Source: a virus (lineage: Duplodnaviria > Heunggongvirae > Uroviricota > Caudoviricetes). Taken from it: DNA of 64,000 nt. Both the position numbers and the translations under genes were made by a program. Below the pieces are notes generated by a model. That model was not told the origin of the DNA. It saw only the letters and a program-made list of their open reading frames with translations, and ran no database searches. The DNA lies in the IMG/VR virus record IMGVR_UViG_3300042860_001920, one strand, 5' to 3'. This document shows positions 1 to 53,388 of this stretch, one piece after another (positions within the stretch are counted from its first letter, which is position 1; each line of letters begins with the position of its first letter).

Positions 1-52
1 AGTCCTATTAAATTGGTGCAAAATTATATAAATATTTAAAAGGGATATATTT

Positions 53-592
53 ATGGAACAAGATTATAAAGGCACCGAAAGACGTAAAAATAATGGAGAA
101 CATATCTGTGTAAAGGAAGAAGCTATCGATAGCATTTATGATGATATGAATAATGTAAAAAGTGACATTAATACCATTAAAAATGATAAAATCCATACAA
201 ACGAACTTTTGTCAGGTATTACTAAACAATTATCCAGTATCGATAAGCGATTATTTATTGATAATGGTACGTTAAGTATACAAACTCAATTACGTGATGG
301 TGGTGCGAGAATGGCACAGATTGAAATAAATCTTAGAGCTATGGACGCACAAGTGACATTAAACAACAAGACTATGGCAGATAAAATAGATGATGTTAAA
401 AAAGAACCAAAAAAATATGCTGTATATACCGTAGGATTAATTTCATTGTTAGGTGGATTATGTGGATTGATTATTTGGATTAATGCTCATAGTTTTACAC
501 CCACACCACAATATATTTATCAACCAGTTCCTATTGGTATGCATCAATCCCCACAATCACAAATACCTGCATTAACTAAAACTGAAAAATAA
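53..592 (+). CDS. Hypothetical coiled-coil protein with C-terminal transmembrane anchor
   Basis: 179-aa ORF; hydrophobic segment LISLLGGLCGLIIWI near the C-terminus; first gene of a plus-strand island. Confidence 0.5.
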   Translation: MEQDYKGTERRKNNGEHICVKEEAIDSIYDDMNNVKSDINTIKNDKIHTNELLSGITKQLSSIDKRLFIDNGTLSIQTQLRDGGARMAQIEINLRAMDAQVTLNNKTMADKIDDVKKEPKKYAVYTVGLISLLGGLCGLIIWINAHSFTPTPQYIYQPVPIGMHQSPQSQIPALTKTEK

Positions 593-640
593 CTTGACAT
601 TTCGAATGAATTTGATAAATCATTATAAAGGAAGAAAACT

Positions 641-1207
641 ATGAAAAATGTATTAGTAAGTTTAATGTTGGGTTTAGGTATGATTTATATGTCTGGTTGT
701 GCAGTTCTTATGCCAATTTCGTCATATAATGCCAGTAGAGTGAAAGATAACGCAATTCAAGAACAGATTATCGCAAGAAATAATCCAGACCAAATAAGAG
801 CATTGAATGCTGGTGTGTCACCTAGAAGTGTAGTTAGAATTATTCCTACACAAGACTTAAAGGGTGCTTTTGTTGCTGTAGATTTATTAAATCCCGATAC
901 TTGGAGTGGATTCAGAACATTTAAAGAAGCACCTGTTTCATCTACTTTTGCCTTTTTAGGTGATGCAGGTTTATGGACAACAATTGTATACGGAGCCGTA
1001 AAAGTATTCGATAGCAGTAATAGTAAAGAAGAAACTAATGTTACAGTTAATAATGGTGATGGGACTACTGCTGTAAATGTTAATTCAGATGGAAATAATA
1101 CAACAGTTAATGCAGGTGGTAGTGGTGGTGGAACAACTGTGTTAAATGTAAATTCGGATAATAACAATACTGATGTAGATAATCCCCCTCCACCTGCAAC
1201 ACCTTAA
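641..1207 (+). CDS. Putative lipoprotein with Asn/Thr/Gly-rich repetitive C-terminus
   Basis: Signal peptide plus lipobox-like MSGC at the N-terminus; RBS aaggaag upstream; repeats VNNGDGTT / NSDGNNTT. Confidence 0.55.
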   Translation: MKNVLVSLMLGLGMIYMSGCAVLMPISSYNASRVKDNAIQEQIIARNNPDQIRALNAGVSPRSVVRIIPTQDLKGAFVAVDLLNPDTWSGFRTFKEAPVSSTFAFLGDAGLWTTIVYGAVKVFDSSNSKEETNVTVNNGDGTTAVNVNSDGNNTTVNAGGSGGGTTVLNVNSDNNNTDVDNPPPPATP

Positions 1208-1218
1208 AGGAAATAAAT

Positions 1219-2007
1219 ATGAAATATGCACTTTTGACAGCTTCAAATTATGTAAATACAGCAAATCAACTAGCAGGATGTATTACAGATGTAACACTTA
1301 TGCGTGAACGTCTAGAAAAAATCGGTGTCGAAATTTTTACCGATCTTAGAGATAGTGATTTAACAACTGGAAATTGGAAAGACGCTTTACGTGGTATTGC
1401 GAAAAAAGCCAAAAGTGGTGATGTGATTTTCAGTATGTATTCAGGACACGGTACAACTATGCGTTCTAGTGATAAAATGGGATATGATGAATGTTATTGT
1501 CCTGACGATTTTGATGGTAGTGATGCACACGTAATTAGAGATGATTATATGGCAGCAATAATGAACGAACTAGAAGATGGTGTAAAATGGATACAGTGGA
1601 GTGATTGTTGTCATGCTGGTGGTTCTTTACGTGATTTATGGTATGCAGGTGAACGTCCTCGTTATATCGTAAATACTGAACTGAAAGAAACTAAATTATT
1701 TGGATTTAACACTAATCCGGTAGTTAATCCATTAGTAGTATCTGGTGATAGCTATAAAGGTATTCTATTGGCAGCGTGTCGAAGTAATCAGACAAGTGCT
1801 GATGCTTTTATCGATGGTCAACATTGTGGTGCATTTAGTCATTATTTTATGAAAGCTATGGATGAACGTCCTATGGGAACTTATGAAGATTTAATGCTTC
1901 GTACCACAGAATTGTTAGGTTTAGGTGGATACGATCAGAAACCTGAACTTGATTGTAAAACTGGTGATGAACACGGTAAATTTAAAGACGATATCTTAAC
2001 GGCTTAA
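1219..2007 (+). CDS. Caspase-like (peptidase C14, metacaspase-type) protein
   Basis: N-terminal KYALLTASNY; catalytic His in YSGHGT and catalytic Cys in DCCHAGG, the hallmark C14 dyad. Confidence 0.7.
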   Translation: MKYALLTASNYVNTANQLAGCITDVTLMRERLEKIGVEIFTDLRDSDLTTGNWKDALRGIAKKAKSGDVIFSMYSGHGTTMRSSDKMGYDECYCPDDFDGSDAHVIRDDYMAAIMNELEDGVKWIQWSDCCHAGGSLRDLWYAGERPRYIVNTELKETKLFGFNTNPVVNPLVVSGDSYKGILLAACRSNQTSADAFIDGQHCGAFSHYFMKAMDERPMGTYEDLMLRTTELLGLGGYDQKPELDCKTGDEHGKFKDDILTA

Positions 2008-2031
2008 TAAATTTACTAAAGCTGGTGTACA

Positions 2032-2910
2032 ATGGATATTAACAATAAACAAACACAATTTAGACAAAAAACTTATCATCAAGAATTAATTATAAATGGG
2101 TTTAGTGATAATATTGGTAAATTGACGCTTAATGGTTCCACGGTTACAACATGGCCTACTAGTGCAACAAGTTTTACAAAATGGGGTAATATCGTTGGTG
2201 GTAATATTGACTATCAATTAGATTTGAAAGATAAGTTGGATGGTAAAACTAATTTAACGGATTTTAATATACTTACATCCAATGTTAGTACGTTATCCTC
2301 TAATGTTATTACTTTATCCACAGAAGTTAATACAATGTCGGGTAATATTATAACGTTATCTGGTGCCAATTATGTACCTGCTGGTGCTATAATGCCGTTT
2401 GCAATGGCTACAGCACCCGTAGGCTGGATATCTTGTGATGGTAGCTCTCTGAGTAGGACTACTTATAACACACTCTTTTTAGCCATAGGAACAACTTGGG
2501 GTAATGTTGATATAAACACATTCAATGTTCCAAATCTTAATGGTAAAACATTAGTGCAATATGACGCATCCCAAACTGAGTTTAATGCCATTGCTAAAAC
2601 AGGTGGTGAAAATACACATACATTAGGTGTAACAGAAATACCATCACATAATCATGGTGGTGCCGCAAGTGGTTCTTTTAGTGGAACGACTGATAGTGGT
2701 GGTGCAGGTGGTGATAACGTTTCTTCTAATACTAAAAGAGGAACTTCGGCTGGTAGTTCTTTTAATTCAAGTGAAATTGCAACTACTGGTGATTCCCACA
2801 CCCATTCCTATAGTGGCTCTGTTTCAGTAGGAATTGCATCCCAAGGTGGAAGTGTGGCACATAACAACCTACAACCTTATGCTGTTATCAAATATTGCAT
2901 AAAAACTTAA
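2032..2910 (+). CDS. Phage tail collar domain fibre-like protein
   Basis: Tail-collar motif GAIMPFAMATAPVGWISCDGSSLSRTTYNTLFLAIGTTWG; Gly/Ser-rich C-terminus. Confidence 0.7.
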   Translation: MDINNKQTQFRQKTYHQELIINGFSDNIGKLTLNGSTVTTWPTSATSFTKWGNIVGGNIDYQLDLKDKLDGKTNLTDFNILTSNVSTLSSNVITLSTEVNTMSGNIITLSGANYVPAGAIMPFAMATAPVGWISCDGSSLSRTTYNTLFLAIGTTWGNVDINTFNVPNLNGKTLVQYDASQTEFNAIAKTGGENTHTLGVTEIPSHNHGGAASGSFSGTTDSGGAGGDNVSSNTKRGTSAGSSFNSSEIATTGDSHTHSYSGSVSVGIASQGGSVAHNNLQPYAVIKYCIKT

Positions 2911-2947
2911 TTGTTGACAAATCATACTTTTATGCTAACATATTAGT

Positions 2948-3436
2948 ATGAATAAAGAACAATTAAAATTTGATAAACACGAGGATATGGAAAAATATCT
3001 ATATGATAAATATCCAATTATATTTCAAGACAGAAGTAAGGATATGAGTGAGAGTTGTATGTTTTGGGGCATTAATTGTGGCGTAGGTTGGTTTGACCTC
3101 TTAAACAAGCTTTGTGAAGAGGTTCAAGTTATTGCAGATACCACTGGTATTCAACTAGTTGCAGATCAAGTTAAAGAAAAGTTTGCAACACTCCGTTTCT
3201 ACTGGCACACTAAACAATTAGACGATGTGGGTATTACTTACAACGAAGAAACTGGTAAAATTTGGTATAATATTATTGAAGATATTGTAAGCAGAGCCGA
3301 GGAACGAAGTGCATGTACTTGTGAAGATTGTGGAGAATATGGTAAAATTTGTGGAAGTGGTTGGCTTAAAACCCTTTGCAAGACTTGTGCAGATAAAGAC
3401 CCACGTTATAAATATATGGAAGATGAAGGAATTTAA
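2948..3436 (+). CDS. Hypothetical Cys-rich protein
   Basis: 162-aa ORF containing CTCEDCGEYGKICGSGW...CKTC. Confidence 0.5.
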   Translation: MNKEQLKFDKHEDMEKYLYDKYPIIFQDRSKDMSESCMFWGINCGVGWFDLLNKLCEEVQVIADTTGIQLVADQVKEKFATLRFYWHTKQLDDVGITYNEETGKIWYNIIEDIVSRAEERSACTCEDCGEYGKICGSGWLKTLCKTCADKDPRYKYMEDEGI

Positions 3437-3849
3437 TGAATACGGAAATTTTTAAAACATGTGAAGTTTGTGGTGAAAATATTTTCATCTATAAAGGTAT
3501 CGCACATGATGTAGTAGGGCGAGATGATATTAAAGTATGGCATTATGATTGCCGTGTAAATAATACTAAGCATCCTGATGATCTTGCTGTACGTGTATTT
3601 AATTGTACTGGCCCATTAGGTGGTCGTTTCGTAATCTCCTATATGACAGAAAAGGCAGTTGAAAATATTGATTTAATTTTCCCTAACAGTTATATGGTCG
3701 AAGTTACATCAAGTATTATTCGTACCCCTATACTCAAATTGGAGAAAACTGAATATATTAAGAAATTAGTAGAAGACGTAGCAACTGGTTTAACCCTTGA
3801 TGATATCGTGACACCTGTTGCAAAGAAAATGAAAATGGACTACACATGA
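3436..3849 (+). CDS. Hypothetical protein
   Basis: 137-aa ORF; ATGA overlap with the upstream gene. Confidence 0.5.
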   Translation: MNTEIFKTCEVCGENIFIYKGIAHDVVGRDDIKVWHYDCRVNNTKHPDDLAVRVFNCTGPLGGRFVISYMTEKAVENIDLIFPNSYMVEVTSSIIRTPILKLEKTEYIKKLVEDVATGLTLDDIVTPVAKKMKMDYT

Positions 3850-4367
3850 AAGAAAAATGGGAAAAATTAGTTGATTTTTATTACGTTATATACCACAAGA
3901 TATATAATTTACCCTATGCATTAAAAATGCGTTTCATACGTAAACACCACATCATCAAAACATCTTTGAATCCTTGGTGTGGTCATGATACCGATGATAT
4001 TCTTTTGTACGGTATGATGGATTGTTTCAAAAAATTCTACGATGAAGAAGTCGTTGATGGGGTTGTTAATTATAATGTTGATGATGAACATAAAGTTATT
4101 AGACAATCTATGGAAGAAATTTACCTATGGTGGAAAGATTATCCAAACCGTTTAAAACAAATTGAGGACGCTTTAGATAATTGGTTTGAATTGGAAAGAG
4201 CAACAGGTGGATTCGCACTCGATAAACGTAAAACAGTTCAAATGAAGCGCACTAAAGAGTGTCAAGAAGCATGGGAGCGTTTACCATTACTTGAAGAGTT
4301 ATTGTATATTGAAACACAGGCAGTATTAACAAAATTAGTGAAAATAAGAGGATCATTATGGACATGA
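3846..4367 (+). CDS. Hypothetical protein
   Basis: 173-aa ORF, translationally coupled. Confidence 0.5.
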   Translation: MKEKWEKLVDFYYVIYHKIYNLPYALKMRFIRKHHIIKTSLNPWCGHDTDDILLYGMMDCFKKFYDEEVVDGVVNYNVDDEHKVIRQSMEEIYLWWKDYPNRLKQIEDALDNWFELERATGGFALDKRKTVQMKRTKECQEAWERLPLLEELLYIETQAVLTKLVKIRGSLWT

Positions 4368-4699
4368 ATAAAATACCTAAAGACTTAGACACCGCATTAA
4401 TAATTCTTGAGAGTCTTTTACATAAAGATGATTTGAAACGAATTAAAGAACAAATTGATCAATCAGGCTATCATCAAAATTTAGGTAGAAGTATTCGTAA
4501 TAATTGGAATCTATGGTCTGTCTCAATTTTATCTACATGGTTCAAAGGGGTTGGTATAAACCATCCAGATGATATGAGTGCAATAATCTTAGATTCCTTA
4601 CACCGTAAGCTTAATAATAAACCAATTGAATTGATGGAACAAATTAAGGTTTGTCAAGAATATTGGGGTAATACCAAGATTAAATACAGCCATGAATAA
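4358..4699 (+). CDS. Hypothetical protein
   Basis: 113-aa ORF, last gene of the plus-strand island. Confidence 0.5.
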   Translation: MDMNKIPKDLDTALIILESLLHKDDLKRIKEQIDQSGYHQNLGRSIRNNWNLWSVSILSTWFKGVGINHPDDMSAIILDSLHRKLNNKPIELMEQIKVCQEYWGNTKIKYSHE

Positions 4700-4703
4700 T
4701 GGT

Positions 4704-6179
4704 TTAAAGATTAAGACTTTTCCCTAATTCTTTAATGTATTCTGTAACCTCTTCTGGTTGTACATTAAAGTCCTTTGAAATAATCCACTCACGTACAGCA
4801 TTTTTAATGACTCCAATATCCGTTCCTTTAATCTTAGGAAGGATATTCATAATCATTCGACCATCTACGTAACCAGACATACGCTTTTCAAAAGCTTGTT
4901 TCTCACCAAACTTACTGGCAATGTCTTCAACTTTATTCATCTTGTCAGCATAGGCATTTGCATCAAATCTATCACCTCTAGCCGCATCATCAGCGTAAGT
5001 TGTATCTTTAAGTGTTTCCCAATGAGGACTTTGACGAATATCCAAAATTCGTGACTTCTTCATGTCAGTCATGTGATGTGCTAACATGTGATTCTCAATG
5101 GCAAATAAAATAGCGTCACGTTGATCGTTAGTAAACTTTAAACGCTTTACAACCTTATCAAAGACTTCACTACCAACCTTATCGTGTCCATGATATTTGA
5201 CGTTATGCGTATCAATATCAAAGCTTTGAGAAGCAGGTTTACCAATATCATGAAATAAGATAGCCATGTTTGTAATTGGATTCTTACTAGGGCTTTTTCT
5301 GATAGCTTGAATAGTATGTGCAAATACTCCACCTTCGGGGTGACTTTCAGGTGTATGCTCGTACTTGTCCATAATATCAATTTCAGGTAAAATTAATGCT
5401 AAAAGTCCAACGTCTTTTAAATGTTCAATATAATTAGCCAAAGCTGTACCAGAAGAGGCAGATTTGAACAATTCATCACGAATACGTTCAGGGGAAACCT
5501 TCTTAATAAGGTCTTTTAAATCAATAATAGCCTGTCTAGTCTCAGGATCGAGTTTAAAGCCATATCTAGCCATAAAACGCCCAACCCTCATCATGCGTAG
5601 GGCATCCTCAATAAATCGATCCTTGGGGCTACCAACAGCCTTTATGATGCCATTCTTGATGTCTTCAAGTCCACCCTGATAATCCACGATTTCACCAGAA
5701 GTAGTCAAACCTAACGAATTAATCGTAATATCTCTACGTTCACTGTCAGCTTCAAAGGATTTAGTTAAATTTACTCCAGAAGGATGTCTAGAATCAGTCG
5801 TTCCAGTGTAAACATCCTCTCTGTAATGAGCTACTTCAAAGATTTGACCCTTGTATTGGACAGCTACGATACCAAAATCCTTAGATTTGCCAATATCAGC
5901 ACTATGAAAGTGTGTGGCAATCTTCTCAATATCAACATTTGTAGCAATATCGATATCTTTAGGGGCTTTTTTGAGAATTAAATCACGAACTGAACCACCT
6001 ACGACCAAAGCTTCTGCATTAGGTTCAAGGGCTTCAATTTCTTTGCATAATTCCATAGCAGTAGCTAAATCCGGATTAGTGTGAAGGATTCCTTCAAAAT
6101 TATCCAATTTCTGGCGAATTTCTGCTTCTGTCAAAGAGTTGTAAAGTTTGTTAAAAGTGTTCATATCAATATTTAGCAA
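4704..6179 (-). CDS. cca: CCA-adding tRNA nucleotidyltransferase with C-terminal HD phosphohydrolase domain
   Basis: Class II nucleotidyltransferase head GGSVRDLILKKAPKDIDIAT; HD motif LFHDIGK; 491 aa. The start may be TTG at 6179 or ATG at 6164. Confidence 0.85.
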   Translation of the reverse strand: MLNIDMNTFNKLYNSLTEAEIRQKLDNFEGILHTNPDLATAMELCKEIEALEPNAEALVVGGSVRDLILKKAPKDIDIATNVDIEKIATHFHSADIGKSKDFGIVAVQYKGQIFEVAHYREDVYTGTTDSRHPSGVNLTKSFEADSERRDITINSLGLTTSGEIVDYQGGLEDIKNGIIKAVGSPKDRFIEDALRMMRVGRFMARYGFKLDPETRQAIIDLKDLIKKVSPERIRDELFKSASSGTALANYIEHLKDVGLLALILPEIDIMDKYEHTPESHPEGGVFAHTIQAIRKSPSKNPITNMAILFHDIGKPASQSFDIDTHNVKYHGHDKVGSEVFDKVVKRLKFTNDQRDAILFAIENHMLAHHMTDMKKSRILDIRQSPHWETLKDTTYADDAARGDRFDANAYADKMNKVEDIASKFGEKQAFEKRMSGYVDGRMIMNILPKIKGTDIGVIKNAVREWIISKDFNVQPEEVTEYIKELGKSLNL

Positions 6180-6310
6180 TAATAGTGGATTTTGTTATAC
6201 AAGTCAATAAATAGTTATAGCAGTAATCAAAGAAGGCTGGAATCTTCTTTGAAACAAGTGGAGTGAATACTCGCTGTCCTGCTACCAAAGTATTTATAAG
6301 GAGTGCTATT

Positions 6311-6895
6311 ATGTCAAATAAAACGTATTATCAAGAAAATAAAGAAGAAATTTTAAGAAAAAGTAAAATATATAGAGAACAAAATAAAGAAGCTATAAGT
6401 CTTAGAAATAAATTAAAATATTTAAAAAACAAAGATAAAATTATAGAAAAAGTTAAAGGTTATTATCAAAATAATAGAGATAAAGTTTTAGCTTATCATA
6501 AAACATACGATAAAGAGAATCGTAAAAAGATTACTGAATATCAAACCAAATATACGAGAGATAGAAGACAAACCGATATTGATTATAAATTAAGAAGCAT
6601 TTTGAGTTGTAGGATACGTGATGCTTTAAATGGTAAAAATAAATCTAAAGCAACTAAAGAATTAATCGGATGTGATATTCCTACATTAATGATGCATTTA
6701 GAAAAACAATTTAGAGATGATATGACTTGGGACAATCATGGTAAATTTGGTTGGCATATTGATCATATTTTACCATGTGCTTCATTCGATTTAACTGATC
6801 CTGAACAGCAAAAGAAATGCTTCCATTATACTAATTTACAACCACTATGGGCAGAAGAAAATTTATCTAAAAGTGATACTATTTTAATAAGCTAA
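6311..6895 (+). CDS. HNH homing endonuclease
   Basis: GWHIDHILPCASF...NLQPLWAEENLSKSD matches the HNH motif; AAGGAG RBS before ATG 6311; lone plus-strand gene among minus-strand genes. Confidence 0.75.
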   Translation: MSNKTYYQENKEEILRKSKIYREQNKEAISLRNKLKYLKNKDKIIEKVKGYYQNNRDKVLAYHKTYDKENRKKITEYQTKYTRDRRQTDIDYKLRSILSCRIRDALNGKNKSKATKELIGCDIPTLMMHLEKQFRDDMTWDNHGKFGWHIDHILPCASFDLTDPEQQKKCFHYTNLQPLWAEENLSKSDTILIS

Positions 6896-7175
6896 TTTTA
6901 TCCACCATATAATAAGGAGTACGTATTTTATGATTTAAAATACTTTTTGTGTAGTAAAATTCTATTTTAATTTTACCTAGTTTCCATAATCTCTTTAATC
7001 TTCGTTGGATAGTTCTTTCAGATACTTTTACCATATCAGCATATTCTATAGCAGTATGATAACCCCTTGGTATTATAGTATTATTTATAGGTGTGACATC
7101 AAAGAAGGTATCAATCTCTATTGATTTTAACCTAACCTTCTTTGATGGAGAATTTATATATTCTGATCGGTTCAT
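6879..7175 (-). CDS. Small HTH DNA-binding protein
   Basis: Helix-turn-helix-like VSERTIQRRLKRL. Confidence 0.45.
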   Translation of the reverse strand: MNRSEYINSPSKKVRLKSIEIDTFFDVTPINNTIIPRGYHTAIEYADMVKVSERTIQRRLKRLWKLGKIKIEFYYTKSILNHKIRTPYYMVDKISLLK

Positions 7176-7996
7176 TAATTGAACAAAGTTGCCTTTGCCT
7201 TTTGTGTAGTTAAATTAAGAAAGTGTTTACGCATAATCACAGTTTTATTAGCCAAAATATCGAAAGAAACGAAACCGATAGTTGGTATACCACTACACAT
7301 TTTTGAACCAAACTTTGATCCGAATCCTTGAAGGGCGGGAGTTGTAATTGCTGTCATATCACCATCATCTAAAAGATTGAAGTAATGTATATGGGATCGA
7401 ATTAAATAACTTACAGGCTTAGGAATCAATTCTTTTTCTTGCCACAACTTTGCCCAAATCATTTCTTTAGCAATAGGAGCTTGTCTACTTTGAGGTACAC
7501 TACTACTACCCACATTATGTTTAATATCAAAAATTACTCCATTAATATCTAACCATGCGTGATTTTCAAACTTACCATTAATTTGTTGTGCTAAAATTTC
7601 TTCAAAATCTTCCACATTACCAGTATGATAGGGGGTTCCCGCTACAATTATATTTGTGTTTGCATTAGCCCTTTTAATTGCACTTTTCGCAATTTGAACT
7701 TGCATATTTCTATCAGTAGTTATTAATTCAGTTCCACCAGAACGCCATCCATCACCATCGATTGCATCACCATTAGAAACAAGAATATCAATTTTCTTAT
7801 CTCTTTGTAAATTTGTTATTTCTGTTGCATAAAAATCCCAAATTGCTTTTTGGATATTATTAAGTTTATTACGTTTACCTACATCATCTGATACAATTTT
7901 ACCTTGATAATCTGGATGTGTTAGACCCACTGCGTGACCGCAATGCATGTCACTAACAACCACTAATCGATAATCCTTACGTTTTAGTATATTCAT
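7175..7996 (-). CDS. Calcineurin-like metallophosphoesterase
   Basis: LVVVSDMHCGH and GDAIDGDGW phosphoesterase motifs. Confidence 0.65.
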   Translation of the reverse strand: MNILKRKDYRLVVVSDMHCGHAVGLTHPDYQGKIVSDDVGKRNKLNNIQKAIWDFYATEITNLQRDKKIDILVSNGDAIDGDGWRSGGTELITTDRNMQVQIAKSAIKRANANTNIIVAGTPYHTGNVEDFEEILAQQINGKFENHAWLDINGVIFDIKHNVGSSSVPQSRQAPIAKEMIWAKLWQEKELIPKPVSYLIRSHIHYFNLLDDGDMTAITTPALQGFGSKFGSKMCSGIPTIGFVSFDILANKTVIMRKHFLNLTTQKAKATLFN

Positions 7997-8010
7997 ATGT
8001 TTTCTTTCTT

Positions 8011-8322
8011 CTAACTATTTAAACAATCACACTCATTTACACCACATTCTTTACAACTATCCCATAATAAACTTAATGGCATTGCTTTACTAAGAGTATC
8101 ATGATCCCCGTAGAAATCAAGTAATCTTTTGTATTCTTCATCTGTGCAACCCGGTGTTCCCATTTTTTCAAGATATTTACAAGTTGGGATTAACACATCA
8201 CACAATACCGTATAGTCATAGTACGGGCAGTTTTTTGTGTAGATTTTACTTTCCTTCATATCTACACGACTTATTGTATAGCAGTAATCACCTTTAGGTA
8301 TGACTGATTTATCTTTATGCAT
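8011..8322 (-). CDS. Hypothetical Cys-rich protein
   Basis: 103-aa ORF with multiple Cys pairs. Confidence 0.5.
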   Translation of the reverse strand: MHKDKSVIPKGDYCYTISRVDMKESKIYTKNCPYYDYTVLCDVLIPTCKYLEKMGTPGCTDEEYKRLLDFYGDHDTLSKAMPLSLLWDSCKECGVNECDCLNS

Positions 8323-8323
8323 C

Positions 8324-8461
8324 TCTATCGTCTTTCCAATTTTTACGACCCTTTTTCATATCGGCTTCACGCATACGGTCTTTGGCAGATTTGATCTTCT
8401 TTGTTGGTTTAGGCATATCCTTACGGATTTGTCTGAATAATTCTGTGAATTTTGTTGTCAT
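8324..8461 (-). CDS. Small basic protein (45 aa)
   Basis: ORF MTTKFTELFRQIRKDMPKPTKKIK... absent from the track; its stop overlaps the next ATG (ATGCATAA). Confidence 0.3.
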
Positions 8462-8470
8462 GTTGTACCT

Positions 8471-8719
8471 CTATACAATATTTATCTTAAAGAAGATTGT
8501 ATGAGCGTCATTATCTTTATCAGTAATTTGAACGATACAGAATTCAGTACCTTCCATATCTTTACGCATTTGTTTAGAATGGATACTCCAAGCTCCATTT
8601 TTATCACCAAAAAGACCGTCTAAAATCTTTGCAATATCTTCATCGATATAGGCTAACATACCACCCTTTTTATTGAGTACGAAAGCTGTTTTTCCATCTA
8701 TTCCTCTATGTATAATCAT
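8471..8719 (-). CDS. Hypothetical protein
   Basis: 82-aa ORF. Confidence 0.45.
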   Translation of the reverse strand: MIIHRGIDGKTAFVLNKKGGMLAYIDEDIAKILDGLFGDKNGAWSIHSKQMRKDMEGTEFCIVQITDKDNDAHTIFFKINIV

Positions 8720-9093
8720 TATTTCTCTCCTTCGAAAATGTTTCCAACTACAGTTAGATTACCTGCGGTTTCAAATACAGGCGAATTTAATGCACCTTCA
8801 TTATCCATAATCATCCAACAACCAGTAGCAAATATTACTTCACCTGTTTTACCGTTACAAATTCTACCTGATATATGCTCTACAAGATCACCTTCATAGA
8901 TATCTACACCATTTTTATCAACACTTCCAGTATATTGTTGAACATGTAATGTATCCAAATCTTCAATACGAGTTTGGTTTAATAAATCAAACATTACTGT
9001 CTCGCCAATGATATGAAAGCCAGTGGCTAAGAATTCATTCTTCTTTGTTGACCACGCTCTAAATTTTAATTCTCTGTATTTAAATTGATTCAT
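8719..9093 (-). CDS. YopX-like phage protein
   Basis: LKFRAWSTKKNEF ... IYEGDLV pattern typical of the YopX family. Confidence 0.5.
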   Translation of the reverse strand: MNQFKYRELKFRAWSTKKNEFLATGFHIIGETVMFDLLNQTRIEDLDTLHVQQYTGSVDKNGVDIYEGDLVEHISGRICNGKTGEVIFATGCWMIMDNEGALNSPVFETAGNLTVVGNIFEGEK

Positions 9094-9094
9094 A

Positions 9095-9691
9095 TTAGAC
9101 CATTTCTTTATAAAATAATGTACAAACCCATTTCAAGGTTCTCAACACTCTGCCACCGTCACCTGCCACACCTGCACCCATTGCTTTTATTTCATCTGAA
9201 TTTCTATTTAGAAACGCAGTAATTTCTTCATCTGTGAATTTTCTATCTGTAATATAAGGAGCAAAGTGTTTAATAGCATTAAATAGGATATCTGGTGTAA
9301 TATTCCATACACATAAATTAAGTCTTATTTTTTCACCGTCTTTATTATTTATAAAAGCTTCAATAAGTTGATCTTTAATCTTACATGTACCATCTTCGGT
9401 TAAAAGCTTCTCATACCAAGGAAGTTTCATATATTTCGCATGTTCGGCATATCGCTTTTTATCAGCTTCCATACGCTTCTTTTTATGAATCAACCATGAT
9501 TCGGCTGTAGGAAAATCTTCATAGATAACATATTTATGCTTCTGTTTCTCTTCTTCGGTTACAGTTTCAGCATATTCCTGATAATGTATCCAAGCATCAT
9601 AAGATTCTTGGACTACAAACAAAGGCGTGTTATGGATATCAAAAATCTCCATGTAAACGATGTCAAAATCTTCTAACGATATCTTATTCAT
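9095..9691 (-). CDS. Hypothetical protein
   Basis: 198-aa ORF. Confidence 0.5.
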   Translation of the reverse strand: MNKISLEDFDIVYMEIFDIHNTPLFVVQESYDAWIHYQEYAETVTEEEKQKHKYVIYEDFPTAESWLIHKKKRMEADKKRYAEHAKYMKLPWYEKLLTEDGTCKIKDQLIEAFINNKDGEKIRLNLCVWNITPDILFNAIKHFAPYITDRKFTDEEITAFLNRNSDEIKAMGAGVAGDGGRVLRTLKWVCTLFYKEMV

Positions 9692-9807
9692 AATTTCTCC
9701 ATTATTATTGTATATTCAAGTATTTTAAGAATCTCTTCTTTTGTTTCGTTCCCAGATATTGATATATTTATCCCTAACTTCTTTCATCGACATTTCACTT
9801 AATGGTT

Positions 9808-10299
9808 TCATATTTTTAACTCCCAAGGAAAATTTATCCACGTACCCTTCTTAACAGTCCTACAAAAGAAATCAGGCGTACCATCAGCCTCTTGTTTATG
9901 ATATAACGTTGCGGTAGCAATATTATTCTTAACACCATTTTCTTTCAACACTTTAATAATCTCTGTGATCGTCCTACCTGTATCGTAAATATCATCCACA
10001 ATCAATATTTTAGCATTCTTGTCAATATCACGCTTTATCGATTTAGGTATAAACACCTTAACAGAATCGTGCTTTTTGTCAACACCTAAATAGCCTTTTG
10101 TTTGAATTATGTAGAATAAAGCATCTGGATAATATTGTCCGAGCAAACCAGCAGGAATTAAACCACCTTTAGCAACAGGCATAATAACCTGTGGGGTGTA
10201 TTCCGCTTTCTTCAACATTTCTACCATCTCTAAAATGGTGGTATGAATGTGTTTGTAGGTGAGATGTTTAATAGTACTCATAAAATTTGTAAAGTACAT
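9808..10299 (-). CDS. Type I phosphoribosyltransferase
   Basis: PRPP-binding motif ILIVDDIYDTGRTI. Confidence 0.75.
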   Translation of the reverse strand: MYFTNFMSTIKHLTYKHIHTTILEMVEMLKKAEYTPQVIMPVAKGGLIPAGLLGQYYPDALFYIIQTKGYLGVDKKHDSVKVFIPKSIKRDIDKNAKILIVDDIYDTGRTITEIIKVLKENGVKNNIATATLYHKQEADGTPDFFCRTVKKGTWINFPWELKI

Positions 10300-10763
10300 T
10301 CTACAGTTTCTTGTAGGGTTTTACAAGGATTTCTTTGTGTATATAACTGATAAATTGTATCAAGATACTTCGTGTGAATAGCACCATCCGGTCTTCCGTA
10401 TATTACACTATTATTTTTAATATTCATACCAAATTCGACATTAGTTGTCAATCCGGGTAAAGTTTCCATATTTCTAGGAATCCAAAACATAATAACATTA
10501 CAATAATCTAAGCCATTAAGTTCCCAAGTAATTTGATCGTCATAATTAAATTTAACAGCCCAATCTGCACGTTCTGGTACATACACTATACCATCGAATC
10601 CAAAAGATTCTAGTATTTCTAAAGCTTCTGGTCGCCATCCTTTTACGTCATTACTTCGTGGAGTTGGCCCTGCTAGGAAAATAGCCTTCATATAGGGGTC
10701 AATTTTACCACGACCTTGTGCAGGTTTATTATCTGGTGTAAATATTTTCATTATAAATCCCAA
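10278..10763 (-). CDS. Nucleoside 2-deoxyribosyltransferase-like protein (paralogue A)
   Basis: IFLAGPTPR ... IMFWIPR ... GLTTNVEFG ... YGRPD; paralogous to 26577-27065. Confidence 0.45.
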   Translation of the reverse strand: MGFIMKIFTPDNKPAQGRGKIDPYMKAIFLAGPTPRSNDVKGWRPEALEILESFGFDGIVYVPERADWAVKFNYDDQITWELNGLDYCNVIMFWIPRNMETLPGLTTNVEFGMNIKNNSVIYGRPDGAIHTKYLDTIYQLYTQRNPCKTLQETVECTLQIL

Positions 10764-11188
10764 GAATTAGGTGTTCGTTGATTAGATTCGTGTATTACCT
10801 TTGGAACATCTTTCTTTTTCTTCGATTTTTTAAGATGATCTGGTATAATAGTAGTAATGACACCTTCTTTAATAGGTTCGGTTAAAACTTCAAGAGGGTA
10901 GGGATCACTTGCAGAAGGTGTAGACTTTTCTTTATCTTCGTGTAAAAGTTGCAATTCTCGTTTATAATCAATTCCTATGCCAAAATTTTCCATTAATAGT
11001 GCTTCGCTAAATTTATTAGTGATTAAAACGGTCTGATAGTACGTAGGTGGAAATCCTTGATATATTTCTGCTACCATACCCCCTAATAAAGTTACTTCTT
11101 TGCCAATTTCCTGAATAGCTTGATTTACAAGCCTTTGTACCTCATCTACGGATAATCCTGCTAAAATTTTGTATTCTGGTGTGTTCAT
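10751..11188 (-). CDS. Hypothetical protein
   Basis: 145-aa ORF. Confidence 0.45.
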   Translation of the reverse strand: MNTPEYKILAGLSVDEVQRLVNQAIQEIGKEVTLLGGMVAEIYQGFPPTYYQTVLITNKFSEALLMENFGIGIDYKRELQLLHEDKEKSTPSASDPYPLEVLTEPIKEGVITTIIPDHLKKSKKKKDVPKVIHESNQRTPNSWDL

Positions 11189-11266
11189 ATGTAATAATTT
11201 ACCATATTTTCATAAAATTGCAATCAAATTCGATAAATACTTATAAGAAAACAGGAGAATAATTTT

Positions 11267-12058
11267 ATGGCAATACAAATAACAACAATGGAAGTGATTT
11301 CTGGACAATCTTTAAACTATGGTGCTAGTGGGACATATGAAGGATTAGTACGATTCGGTTTAACAGACAGTCTTAGCGTATCATCAGTAACGGCAGTACG
11401 AATAGACGAAATGACTATGGGGAATGCAGTGTCCTCTAGCCCAACAGCTTATACATTTACTATATCTGGTGCAGCATTGCCACGCACACTAGTTGTAGAT
11501 GGTTCTACAACGGAGTATATTGGTTATACAGTAACAGTTAATAATGACTATTTACATGCAAATACAGATAATCTTATATTATCTTCTTATATGACAGCTT
11601 ATGCAGAAATAAGTGCTGGAACTACCCAAGGTGCAGAAACTTCATCTTATAGAGGTAATTTTATGACATCTAATCCGGGTGTTCTTGTTGTTTTAGGTGA
11701 TTCAGCAGCCCCCGATCCTGTTACAGGATTAACCGCTACAGCAGGTGATAAACAAGTGGCTTTAACTTGGACAAATCCCGCCGCTGATTGGGTTACAGTA
11801 ACAGTTGAACAAAGCATTGTGGCTCCTGTGACAGCCGTTGGTATGGGTACAGCCGTTTATACAGCAACTTCACTTTCTATGAGTGCAGTTGATCTTACAG
11901 TTGCGGCTTATTCTGATGAAACTTATTACTATGGTGTATATGCTACCGATGATGTTGGTAAGACTTCTTTGGTTGTTGAAGCTAGTGCTCAACCTACGTG
12001 GGGTATTTGGACATCCCAACTTGAACATGGACGTTTATACATTCAAGGCGAATTCTAA
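11267..12058 (+). CDS. FN3/Ig-like domain protein (possible Hoc-like decoration or adhesin)
   Basis: FN3-like PDPVTGLTATAGDKQVALTWTNP; Ser/Thr-rich; AGGAG RBS; higher GC than surroundings. Confidence 0.5.
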   Translation: MAIQITTMEVISGQSLNYGASGTYEGLVRFGLTDSLSVSSVTAVRIDEMTMGNAVSSSPTAYTFTISGAALPRTLVVDGSTTEYIGYTVTVNNDYLHANTDNLILSSYMTAYAEISAGTTQGAETSSYRGNFMTSNPGVLVVLGDSAAPDPVTGLTATAGDKQVALTWTNPAADWVTVTVEQSIVAPVTAVGMGTAVYTATSLSMSAVDLTVAAYSDETYYYGVYATDDVGKTSLVVEASAQPTWGIWTSQLEHGRLYIQGEF

Positions 12059-12075
12059 GAAACCTTGATAGATAT

Positions 12076-12107
12076 TAGAAAAGAGTCAGGATTAACGTTC
12101 TGACTCT
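12076..12107. terminator. Bidirectional rho-independent terminator hairpin
   Basis: aagagtcag-gattaacgtt-ctgactctt followed by a T-run, with an A/T run on the other side. Confidence 0.6.
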
Positions 12108-12262
12108 TTTTCTTTCTTTGTTAAGAACGATTTATTGGATGATAATACAGGTAGAATTTTAGCTTTTCATTGGGGTAATTTACAACCTCTATTTATAGAC
12201 GAAAATTTATTAAAGGGTGATTCGATACCCCAAAACACCAACTTTAAATACTAAATACTTTT

Positions 12263-12694
12263 ATGCGTATATTAAATCCATATACAAAATTAGAATTGAT
12301 CCAGGAAATGCCTTGGATTGCAGATACAACTTGTCCACATTGTGGCATAACCTTTGATGCTGATGCACGAGTAGAAACTTGGCCTTATAATACACCTGAT
12401 CTTAAAAAAATCATCAGAATGTATATGAAAACCTTTCTCTATGGCTTAGACTGTCCCGAATGTACCAAACCAATGATTCATGACGCTAAGAAGCATAAAA
12501 GCTATAAGTACGACCCATTAACTTTGAAGAAAATCCCACCAGTTGTACAAAAATTCTTAAAGGACACTAAACCACATTTATCCAGTACTGTCAAGGATCA
12601 ATACGATAAAAATTTTAACATGAAAGAAATTTATAACTTGAAGGAGAAAATGACCTTCAAAGAATTCTGTAAAGTATACGATAGTTTGCATTAA
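12263..12694 (+). CDS. Hypothetical protein
   Basis: 143-aa ORF with CPHCG...CPEC. Confidence 0.45.
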   Translation: MRILNPYTKLELIQEMPWIADTTCPHCGITFDADARVETWPYNTPDLKKIIRMYMKTFLYGLDCPECTKPMIHDAKKHKSYKYDPLTLKKIPPVVQKFLKDTKPHLSSTVKDQYDKNFNMKEIYNLKEKMTFKEFCKVYDSLH

Positions 12695-53313: not shown

Positions 53314-53388
53314 CTCAACTTCAATAAGTATGAACTATCCCCTGTGACTTGTCAACTACTGCGTGAAATTTTAATGTTTTCTTATCGC
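53314..53388 (-). promoter_or_regulatory. Early-promoter repeat family, copy 1
   Basis: Minus strand GTAGTTGACAAG-17nt-CATACTTATTGAAGTTGAG; conserved ~75-bp element. Confidence 0.55.

Follow-up and report, generated by a model that had tools for sequence, protein, structure and literature searches.

A metacaspase gene and its lipoprotein neighbour in a T4-like phage stretch: gene content, recurrence of the pair and possible roles

Gene content of the locus

The window examined here, which is the whole 64,000-nucleotide stretch of IMG/VR virus record IMGVR_UViG_3300042860_001920, begins with eight co-directional open reading frames (ORFs) on the plus strand (p1–p8; 53–592, 641–1207, 1219–2007, 2032–2910, 2948–3436, 3436–3849, 3846–4367 and 4358–4699), and the minus strand carries most of the other approximately 100 window genes. 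The second ORF encodes a lipoprotein, the third a metacaspase and the fourth a tail-collar fibre-type protein. A sequence-only reading had described this arrangement correctly and had offered two interpretations of the protease, namely processing of a fibre or adhesin, or a place in an acquired host-like effector cassette. With moderate confidence, the functional unit is the lipoprotein together with the metacaspase, a unit that the earlier reading had missed.

The metacaspase

The ORF at 1219–2007 (plus strand) encodes a protein of 262 residues in which residues 2–247 match Peptidase_C14 of Pfam (PF00656; E = 8.6e-24; 84.9 bits where 21.4 is the cutoff). CHAT, the other family against which a hidden Markov model (HMM) search had been suggested, gave no match in Pfam. 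Among PDB sequences the top match is yeast Yca1 (4e-22), and AtMC9 and AtMC4 of Arabidopsis and TbMCA2 of T. brucei are also found. The AlphaFold2 (AF2) model has a predicted local distance difference test score (pLDDT) of 81.6 and a predicted template modelling score (pTM) of 0.81, and Foldseek places it closest to AtMC9 (1.7e-17, template modelling score 0.73), followed by AtMC4, TbMCA2 and Yca1, which speaks against the different His/Cys fold that the sequence-only reading had allowed for. Judged by sequence and by predicted fold, the product is a true metacaspase.

The two residues of the catalytic dyad, H77 in SGHG and C131 in DCCHAGG, both in the p20-like part, align to the catalytic residues of Yca1 and AtMC9 and are unchanged in 31 close and distant homologues. 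In a larger set of 202 caspase relatives from phages, giant viruses and cellular organisms, H77, C131, D129 and S193 are kept in all 202, D24 in 200, and the motif Q191-T-S-A-D195 in the p10-like part in at least 201, so the dyad noticed earlier holds in both alignments. By analogy with the published structures of TbMCA2 and Yca1, D24 and D129 are predicted to form an acidic S1 pocket, which should direct cleavage to Arg/Lys. Acidic S1 residues and QTSAD set metacaspases apart from caspases and orthocaspases, and the window protein has both. From its residues the product is expected to be catalytically competent, and the ratio of nonsynonymous to synonymous substitution rates (dN/dS) against two relatives is 0.15–0.23, indicating purifying selection.

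The protein has no signal peptide, prodomain or sensor domain and begins, in the AF2 model, at the first p20 strand; the N-terminal Pro/Gln-rich or LSD1 zinc-finger prodomain by which type I metacaspases are strictly defined is absent. E91, D108, D109 and D139, together with the conserved R148 in a disordered linker (135–180), are candidate Ca2+ or autoprocessing sites, and the four acidic residues may fall at roughly the positions of the Ca2+ ligands of TbMCA2. In many relatives the protein is extended at the N-terminus by a short Trp/Phe-rich segment and, after it, a Thr/Pro-rich linker; the amphipathic moment of these extensions is only moderate (0.5–0.67), and the Trp/Phe-rich segment might serve as a membrane-interface tether.

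The lipoprotein and its family

Directly upstream, p2 (641–1207, plus strand) encodes a lipoprotein of 188 residues with a signal peptide, a lipobox MSGC with the lipidated position at Cys20, and an Asn/Thr/Gly-rich tail ending in PPPPATP, in agreement with the Asn/Thr-rich lipoprotein reported by the sequence-only reading. A profile search collected 35 proteins of the same family, and in the family alignment (A7) the M-S/T-G-C lipobox is conserved and C20, P98, A104 and D108 are invariant. The conserved core AIRAV..GGVGIGIDVSN..EAL.EQP..QLGAA..DAA..YG.Y.GV is followed by an Asn/Gly/Thr-rich tail, and a hydrophobic Gly/Ala-rich helix of p2 (98–125) falls under the threshold for a transmembrane (TM) segment and is treated as periplasmic.

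Scans of IMG/VR with p2 as a single sequence, and with single members of the family, gave no matches. The full family alignment is too divergent for pattern scanning, and a scan with a sub-alignment (A8) gave three further loci only, while an exhaustive HMM search returned 416 representative clusters, of which 260 reach E<=1e-10. No match to the family is found in Pfam, PHROG or PDB, and it constitutes an undescribed lipoprotein family.

Recurrence of the lipoprotein and metacaspase pair

In the window lineage, 11 nt separate the stop codon of the lipoprotein gene from the metacaspase gene. Nine loci were compared, consisting of the window and eight loci recruited via the caspase, and predicted lipoproteins adjoin the caspase in five of them and are found nowhere else in these loci. 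A gene of the p2 family stands beside the caspase gene in the window and in loci L003, L246/L247, L004, L250/L251, L252, L254 and L255. The order is lipoprotein then caspase both in lineage A (the window, L003, L246/L247 and the P0003/P0043 contig) and in lineage B (L250/L251, L252, L254 and L255), where the caspases are 26% identical to that of the window. The lineage-B contigs are phage-like by gene content, and tblastx of their loci against the 64-kb window gave no further shared gene. In L004 the two types meet: its lipoprotein is a weak p2 homologue, 61% identical to that of L252 and hence of the lineage-B type, and its window-type caspase (55% identity to the window protein) is inverted yet still adjacent to the lipoprotein.

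Of four distant p2-family loci, L250/L251 and L252 have the lipoprotein directly upstream of a same-strand Peptidase_C14 gene and L248/L249 and L253 do not; three loci found later comprise pairs in L254 and L255 and a lipoprotein alone in L256. Beyond the window lineage, five of the eight p2-family loci thus have a caspase. In the loci of the phage caspase clade, predicted lipoproteins occupy 9 of 54 positions within two genes of the caspase and none of 133 positions further off, and in the controls they are found by the caspase at 0/289 positions in other IMG/VR loci and 1/175 in cellular loci. The p2-family HMM has no match in 157 metacaspase loci outside the clade (80 cellular and 77 other viral, mostly of giant viruses). 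Because one lipoprotein family recurs beside two caspase subclades, because of the exchange seen in L004 and because the controls are clean, we conclude with moderate confidence that lipoprotein and metacaspase form a functional cassette.

Lipoproteins of other kinds are also seen in these surroundings, since unrelated ones flank the caspase in L006 and L007, and in L248, L253 and L256 additional ones come after the p2-family gene. In L007, a more distant relative (4789–9975 of a 262-kb contig that shares the CCA-adding enzyme), the caspase is grouped with other envelope or exported-type genes, which encode a fibre-like protein of 507 residues whose N-terminus resembles a signal peptide, three lipoproteins of another type and a patatin-like phospholipase. 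The lineage-B locus L250 carries, at 8944–12426, two sigma-70-like factors in tandem, a RuvB/clamp-loader-like AAA protein and a TnpB/Cas12f-like gene.

Expression signals

A σ70-like promoter for p2, found by promoter scan at 594–623 (plus strand), has a perfect TTGACA -35 box, an 18-nt spacer and AATCAT as -10 box. The TTGAC(A/T) box is kept in L003 and L246, and it matches the -35 box of the early promoter class of this genome, TTGACA-N17-nATACT, seen for example upstream of rIIA and rIIB, so that p2 might be transcribed from a promoter of its own. Upstream of p1 there is a T4-late-promoter-like TATAAATA box at 27–34 (plus strand), 26 nt before the start codon, within a block ATAAATATTTAAAAGG that is conserved in the window, L003, L246 and L247. 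All three TATAAATA copies located 25–29 nt before a start codon precede plus-strand genes. The box could be a promoter, and since the window as a whole shows no enrichment of TATAAATA (12 copies against 10 expected), late expression is kept as a possibility.

Elsewhere on the minus strand, a strong early-promoter-like motif, TTGACA-N17-(C/G)ATACTTATT(G/A)A.GTTGA, is found upstream of rIIA and several small genes (at 53355, 55963, 56958, 62711 and 63543), and its conservation past the -10 box points to a leader or regulatory element that these genes share.

The tail-collar gene

The fourth ORF (2032–2910, plus strand) encodes a protein of 292 residues identified by Pfam and PHROG profiles. It consists of a unique N-terminal region, a coiled coil, a Collar domain (PF07484, E = 3.3e-19) and a Gly/Ser-rich Gp10_C-like HxH tip (E = 4.8e-7), and it matches 20 tail PHROGs. 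By these matches it belongs to the tail-collar fibre family, as had been noted from the sequence, with a putative place in the virion. In at least 557 IMG/VR contigs the C-terminal domain has matches among minor tail proteins, at 35–50% identity, and no paralogue is present in the window. The sequence-only reading had raised an intramolecular chaperone or an autoproteolysis site, and Pfam detects no Peptidase_S74 module in the protein at E<=0.1; the chain ends six residues past the Gp10_C match.

No recognisable promoter is located in the 24-nt gap between the caspase and collar genes. The closest relatives with DNA are L003, whose caspase is 78% identical, and L246, whose lipoprotein is 87% identical; both have syntenic neighbours and the collar gene is absent. 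In the DNA alignment their caspase stop codon is followed by a hairpin terminator (GAAGCGAAG...CTTCGCTTTTTT) and then by a TTGACA-16-TGnTAACAT promoter, and the window collar ORF fills the exact interval from the caspase stop to this next promoter, in the place of the terminator. In the window the promoter, found by promoter scan at 2914–2941 (plus strand), is σ70-like with a perfect TTGACA box and an extended -10 box (TTGACA-16-TGcTAACAT), would serve p5–p8, and is conserved in L003 and L246, there directly past the terminator hairpin. The alignment marks the collar gene as a later insertion specific to the window that would have displaced the terminator of the cassette, and its co-transcription with the caspase is probably a positional accident.

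Approached from the collar side, none of 80 loci with collar homologues contains a caspase. A collar HMM run over 1.93 Mb of caspase and lipoprotein loci found a single collar ORF, in L083 (1440–3131), a metagenome-assembled genome (MAG) of a giant virus, where the collar-domain protein is directly downstream of a metacaspase and the next gene encodes a eukaryotic-type Ser/Thr kinase. This neighbourhood is treated as chance, being a single instance with a chance probability of ~0.1 by rough estimate. Processing of the fibre protein by the metacaspase was rejected as a candidate, as was the fibre or adhesin link drawn by the sequence-only reading, since the collar gene is an insertion and shows no association with caspases from its own side.

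Other genes of the block and genome setting

The first ORF, p1 (53–592, plus strand), encodes a single-pass membrane protein of 179 residues by hydropathy, with an N-terminal coiled coil of about 120 residues, one TM segment at 122–147 and a short Pro/Gln-rich tail, and it corresponds to the membrane-anchored coiled-coil protein of the sequence-only reading. The coiled coil is predicted to be cytoplasmic from the Lys-rich flank KKEPKK. No family match was found in Pfam, PHROG or NCBIfam; p1 is confined to the close lineage (L003 and L246) and missing from lineage B, and its dN/dS is 0.17–0.27. Downstream of the collar gene, p5–p8 (2948–4699, plus strand) encode four small proteins. Zinc-ribbon-like Cys-rich motifs are present in p5 and p6 (CxCxxC...CxxC and CxxC...C; 2948–3849), and p8 (4358–4699) is a DUF6794 protein (Pfam, E = 1.8e-23). 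The four genes are syntenic in L003 and L246 and are found in no other caspase locus, and they probably form a separate transcription unit outside the cassette.

Since the plus-strand block of L246 and L003 extends further upstream with large fibre-like genes, the island probably reaches past the left edge of the window, and eight genes would then be an incomplete count. One of these, a 1125-residue fibre-like protein upstream of p1 in L246, has a signal-like start, which is unexpected for a virion protein. The GC skew is positive only over 1–5 kb and negative for nearly all of the remaining window. The GC content at third codon positions (GC3) of p1–p4 (53–2910) is 0.16–0.20, the lowest 1–9% of the approximately 100 window genes, and could reflect an expression class or a different origin; the GC3 of p5–p8 is typical of the genome, and the overall GC of the block is that of the genome. 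As a sign of acquisition, which the sequence-only reading had proposed to look for in the GC, the overall value is thus unremarkable and the GC3 of the first four genes is unusual.

Homing-type endonucleases are found nearby. An HNH endonuclease gene just past the island (6263–6895) has the lowest GC3 in the window (0.14), and in L003 a GIY-YIG/NUMOD3 homing endonuclease gene lies between the lipoprotein and caspase genes (2991–3533). Also in L003, a 291-residue NUMOD3 ORF that looks like a homing-endonuclease insertion splits the CCA-adding enzyme gene (6325–8783), the window copy of which (4704–6179) is intact. The closest pair among the window, L003 and L246 differs for p2, the caspase and p5, which suggests recombination at these junctions.

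The 64-kb window is a T4-like stretch with rIIA, rIIB, two RNA ligases, RtcB, a CCA-adding enzyme, NAMPT and two tRNAs. A caspase of identical protein sequence is encoded by 20 public contigs, the longest of 249,720 bp, indicating a jumbo phage of about 250 kb. Megablast of positions 1–7000 against GenBank phages gave no match, the best match of rIIA is 32% identical and comes from an uncultured 595-kb phage, and by these comparisons no close cultured or deposited phage relative was found.

Rarity and origin of the phage metacaspase

The sequence-only reading had called caspase-like proteases unusual in phages, and tblastn of the window caspase against 50,697 GenBank phage records indeed gave one record only, an uncultured 485-kb phage. 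Caspase relatives are encoded by 392 IMG/VR contigs, many of them giant-virus MAGs, and all 25 significant fold matches in BFVD come from giant viruses or ascoviruses. In a neighbour-joining tree the window caspase falls within a monophyletic clade of 27 members, solely from phage-like metagenomic contigs. The sequences nearest to this clade are bacterial, with 37–41% identity on trimmed columns, and the best cellular tblastn matches have 30–36% identity and are scattered over many phyla. Since the identity to cellular proteins is low and the overall GC matches that of the genome, nothing points to a recent capture from a host, and this origin was rejected.

The caspase nevertheless behaves as accessory cargo, which is the part of the acquired-cassette proposal that stands; the observation made from the sequence is confirmed and its interpretation partly supported, in that the protease is an accessory effector and not a fibre-maturation protease. 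In L001, L002 and L004 the caspase is the lone opposite-strand gene amid replication or metabolism genes. In L002 (7031–8945 of a 512-kb contig) it lies beside an NMN (nicotinamide mononucleotide) transporter gene and a metallo-beta-lactamase-fold gene resembling Apyc1, an anti-Pycsar nuclease.

Giant viruses encode metacaspases of unestablished role (PMC10583209, PMC6450098), described by Wilson 2017 and Moniruzzaman 2020 as these are cited in PMC10583209, and for medusavirus in PMC6450098. In the literature searched, phage metacaspases appear solely as a passing annotation among auxiliary genes (bioRxiv 10.64898/2026.01.21.700432).

Comparison with known systems

The best sequence and fold matches of the window caspase are the type I metacaspases Yca1/Mca1 and TbMCA2 and the Arabidopsis enzymes AtMC4/MC9, with which it shares the fold, the His-Cys dyad (SGHG, D-x-C-H-x-G), the acidic S1 residues D24 and D129, the p10-like QTSAD and the order of p20 and p10 with a flexible linker. 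It differs in being phage-encoded, in its length of 262 residues, in an identity of 22–27% and in lacking a Pro/Gln-rich or zinc-finger prodomain. The metacaspases of giant viruses (Nucleocytoviricota) are likewise virus-encoded and stand-alone, and they provide the best viral fold matches and many of the IMG/VR MAG relatives, but their identity is at most about 30%, they fall outside the phage clade, they have lipoprotein neighbours at 0/289 positions, and their hosts are eukaryotic. The nearest relatives outside phages are stand-alone metacaspases of bacteria and archaea (GSU0716, PDB 3bij; loci L166–L245), with about 260 residues, the same architecture, QTSADA and 30–41% identity; these are chromosomal and have no p2-family lipoprotein nearby.

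Defence caspases (gasdermin-activating, TPR-CHAT/Craspase and EACC1-associated) belong to the same C14/CHAT superfamily and act in the conflict between prokaryotes and phages, but they are host-encoded, and the window protein has neither sensor or repeat domains nor gasdermin or CRISPR neighbours. With the NCBIfam model caspase_w_EACC1 the protein reaches 20.8 bits where the cutoff is 140, the PADLOC caspase match is partial (1.3e-9), and no gasdermin, sensor nucleoside triphosphatase or type III CRISPR partner is found among the caspase neighbours. Membership in a defence system was rejected on these scores below the family cutoffs and the lack of partner genes.

For p2 the comparable proteins are phage lipoproteins of superinfection exclusion or lysis, namely T5 Llp, Cor, Rz1-type outer-membrane spanin subunits and the single-component spanin T1 gp11; p2 resembles them in being a small phage lipoprotein with a Pro-rich end, and it has a σ70-like promoter ahead. 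They show no sequence or profile similarity to p2, which moreover is without an inner-membrane partner of spanin topology, and in the literature searched no pairing of these systems with a protease is described.

Proposed function and alternatives

The reading that we prefer, to which we give about an even chance, is that of an accessory two-gene cassette, transcribed from a σ70-like promoter and acting on the infected cell, that pairs an exported lipoprotein with a metacaspase specific for Arg/Lys. Host RNA polymerase would transcribe the pair early, starting at the promoter ahead of p2, and late transcripts might also reach it by read-through from the TATAAATA box that precedes p1. The lipoprotein would be exported and lipid-anchored in the envelope and the protease would stay in the cytoplasm, where in many relatives it may be tethered to the inner membrane through the Trp/Phe-rich N-terminal segment and Thr-rich linker. 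At the envelope the pair might condition the infected cell by limited proteolysis of host or competing-phage proteins, and the outcome might be takeover, the exclusion of superinfecting phages, counter-defence or control over when the cell dies or lyses.

Several observations weigh against this cassette. Either gene occurs alone, the caspase without a family lipoprotein in L001, L002, L005 and L008, and the lipoprotein without a caspase in L248/L249, L253 and L256. Adjacency within each lineage is partly inherited synteny, so that the independent support consists of the two lineages and the exchange in L004, and the 9/54 count is biased by five lineage-B pair loci that were found via the lipoprotein search. 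The lineage-B contigs are taken as phage solely from their gene content. The two proteins have different predicted sites, the lipoprotein extracytoplasmic and the protease cytoplasmic, which leaves direct contact unexplained; the window caspase itself has no Trp/Phe-rich segment; and the AF2 model of p2 is poor (pLDDT 53.6) and offers no structural clue. The substrate and the role of the pair are inferred.

Alternatively, p2 and the caspase might be two independent accessory genes at a common insertion hot spot, the caspase alone directed at the host, as has been proposed (takeover, manipulation of cell death) for giant-virus metacaspases too, and the lipoprotein an unrelated superinfection-exclusion or envelope protein. 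The occurrence of each gene without the other agrees with this, as do the lone opposite-strand caspases amid minus-strand genes in L001, L002 and L004, which look like self-contained inserts, the other lipoproteins in L006, L007, L248, L253 and L256, the atypically low GC3 of p1–p4 and the homing endonucleases nearby. It does not sit well with the association of a single lipoprotein family with two caspase subclades only 26% identical, in genomes sharing nothing else detectable, with an adjacency in L004 that survived inversion or replacement of the caspase, with the 11-nt intergenic gap of the window lineage, or with the absence of the pair from 157 control loci, and we regard it as rather unlikely. 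A protease that counters defence, by cleaving a host immune component such as a membrane-associated abortive-infection effector or by blocking caspase-like or gasdermin-type immunity, is distinctly unlikely. Bacterial caspase-like proteases are defence components and eukaryotic viruses commonly use their proteases to cut immune adaptors, the PADLOC model matches weakly, the caspase of L002 adjoins the Apyc1-like gene and the σ70-like promoter suggests early expression; but no defence or anti-defence gene is consistently adjacent, the NCBIfam defence-caspase score stays far below its cutoff, and the lipoprotein partner would be left unexplained.

A lysis module, in which p1 and p2 would be holin- or spanin-like and a Ca2+-dependent metacaspase, activated by late permeabilisation, would help to dismantle the envelope or the cytoplasm, is improbable to a high degree. 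The T4-late-like TATAAATA box before p1 is conserved, the block comes after fibre-like genes in relatives, phage lysis genes are commonly positioned after fibre genes, and the lipobox and Pro-rich C-terminus of p2 resemble those of outer-membrane spanin subunits; the acidic residues E91, D108, D109 and D139, at the approximate positions of the TbMCA2 Ca2+ ligands, would fit as well. Against this, p1 is missing from lineage B, no endolysin is nearby, p2 has its own early-type promoter and no known lysis family matches p1 or p2. A two-component spanin pair was rejected, because the TM segment of p1 near the C-terminus (122–147 of 179) and its Lys-rich flank predict a cytoplasmic coiled coil, a topology that does not fit an inner-membrane spanin subunit. 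Least credible is that cleavage by the metacaspase matures the adjacent collar protein or some other fibre-like product encoded in the plus-strand block. The two window genes have no recognisable promoter or terminator between them and are probably co-transcribed, relatives hold large fibre-like genes upstream within the block, and it is because of the coincidence in L083, where the only collar ORF in 1.93 Mb directly follows a caspase, that the idea keeps a small probability. The closest relatives keep the caspase without a collar gene at this position, the caspase is alone among replication or metabolism genes in L001, L002 and L004 and absent from all 80 collar-homologue loci, no S74-type module is seen, and L083 is one instance that chance may explain. 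The obvious tail-fibre reading is clearly rejected.

Significance

As an enzyme the window caspase is a new member of the metacaspase family, and the novelty lies in its phage-restricted clade and its conserved orphan-lipoprotein partner. The clade is known from phage-like contigs alone and has intact catalytic residues and purifying selection, and the recurring partner comes from an undescribed family of 416 clusters. Metacaspases have a central part in the regulated cell death of plants, fungi and protists, and related proteases drive bacterial anti-phage suicide systems. A bolder form of the cassette reading, which we consider unlikely, is a hitherto unrecognised phage two-component system in which a lipoprotein anchored in the envelope and a death-type protease close to the membrane would together govern what becomes of the infected bacterium. 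If true, this control could consist of timed or conditional proteolytic killing, superinfection exclusion or the disarming of membrane-based immunity, and the system would be a phage-side counterpart of the caspase-based cell-death systems of bacteria and eukaryotes. The lipoprotein and metacaspase genes thus offer a small, testable two-gene unit for the question of why a lytic bacterial virus carries a death-type protease.

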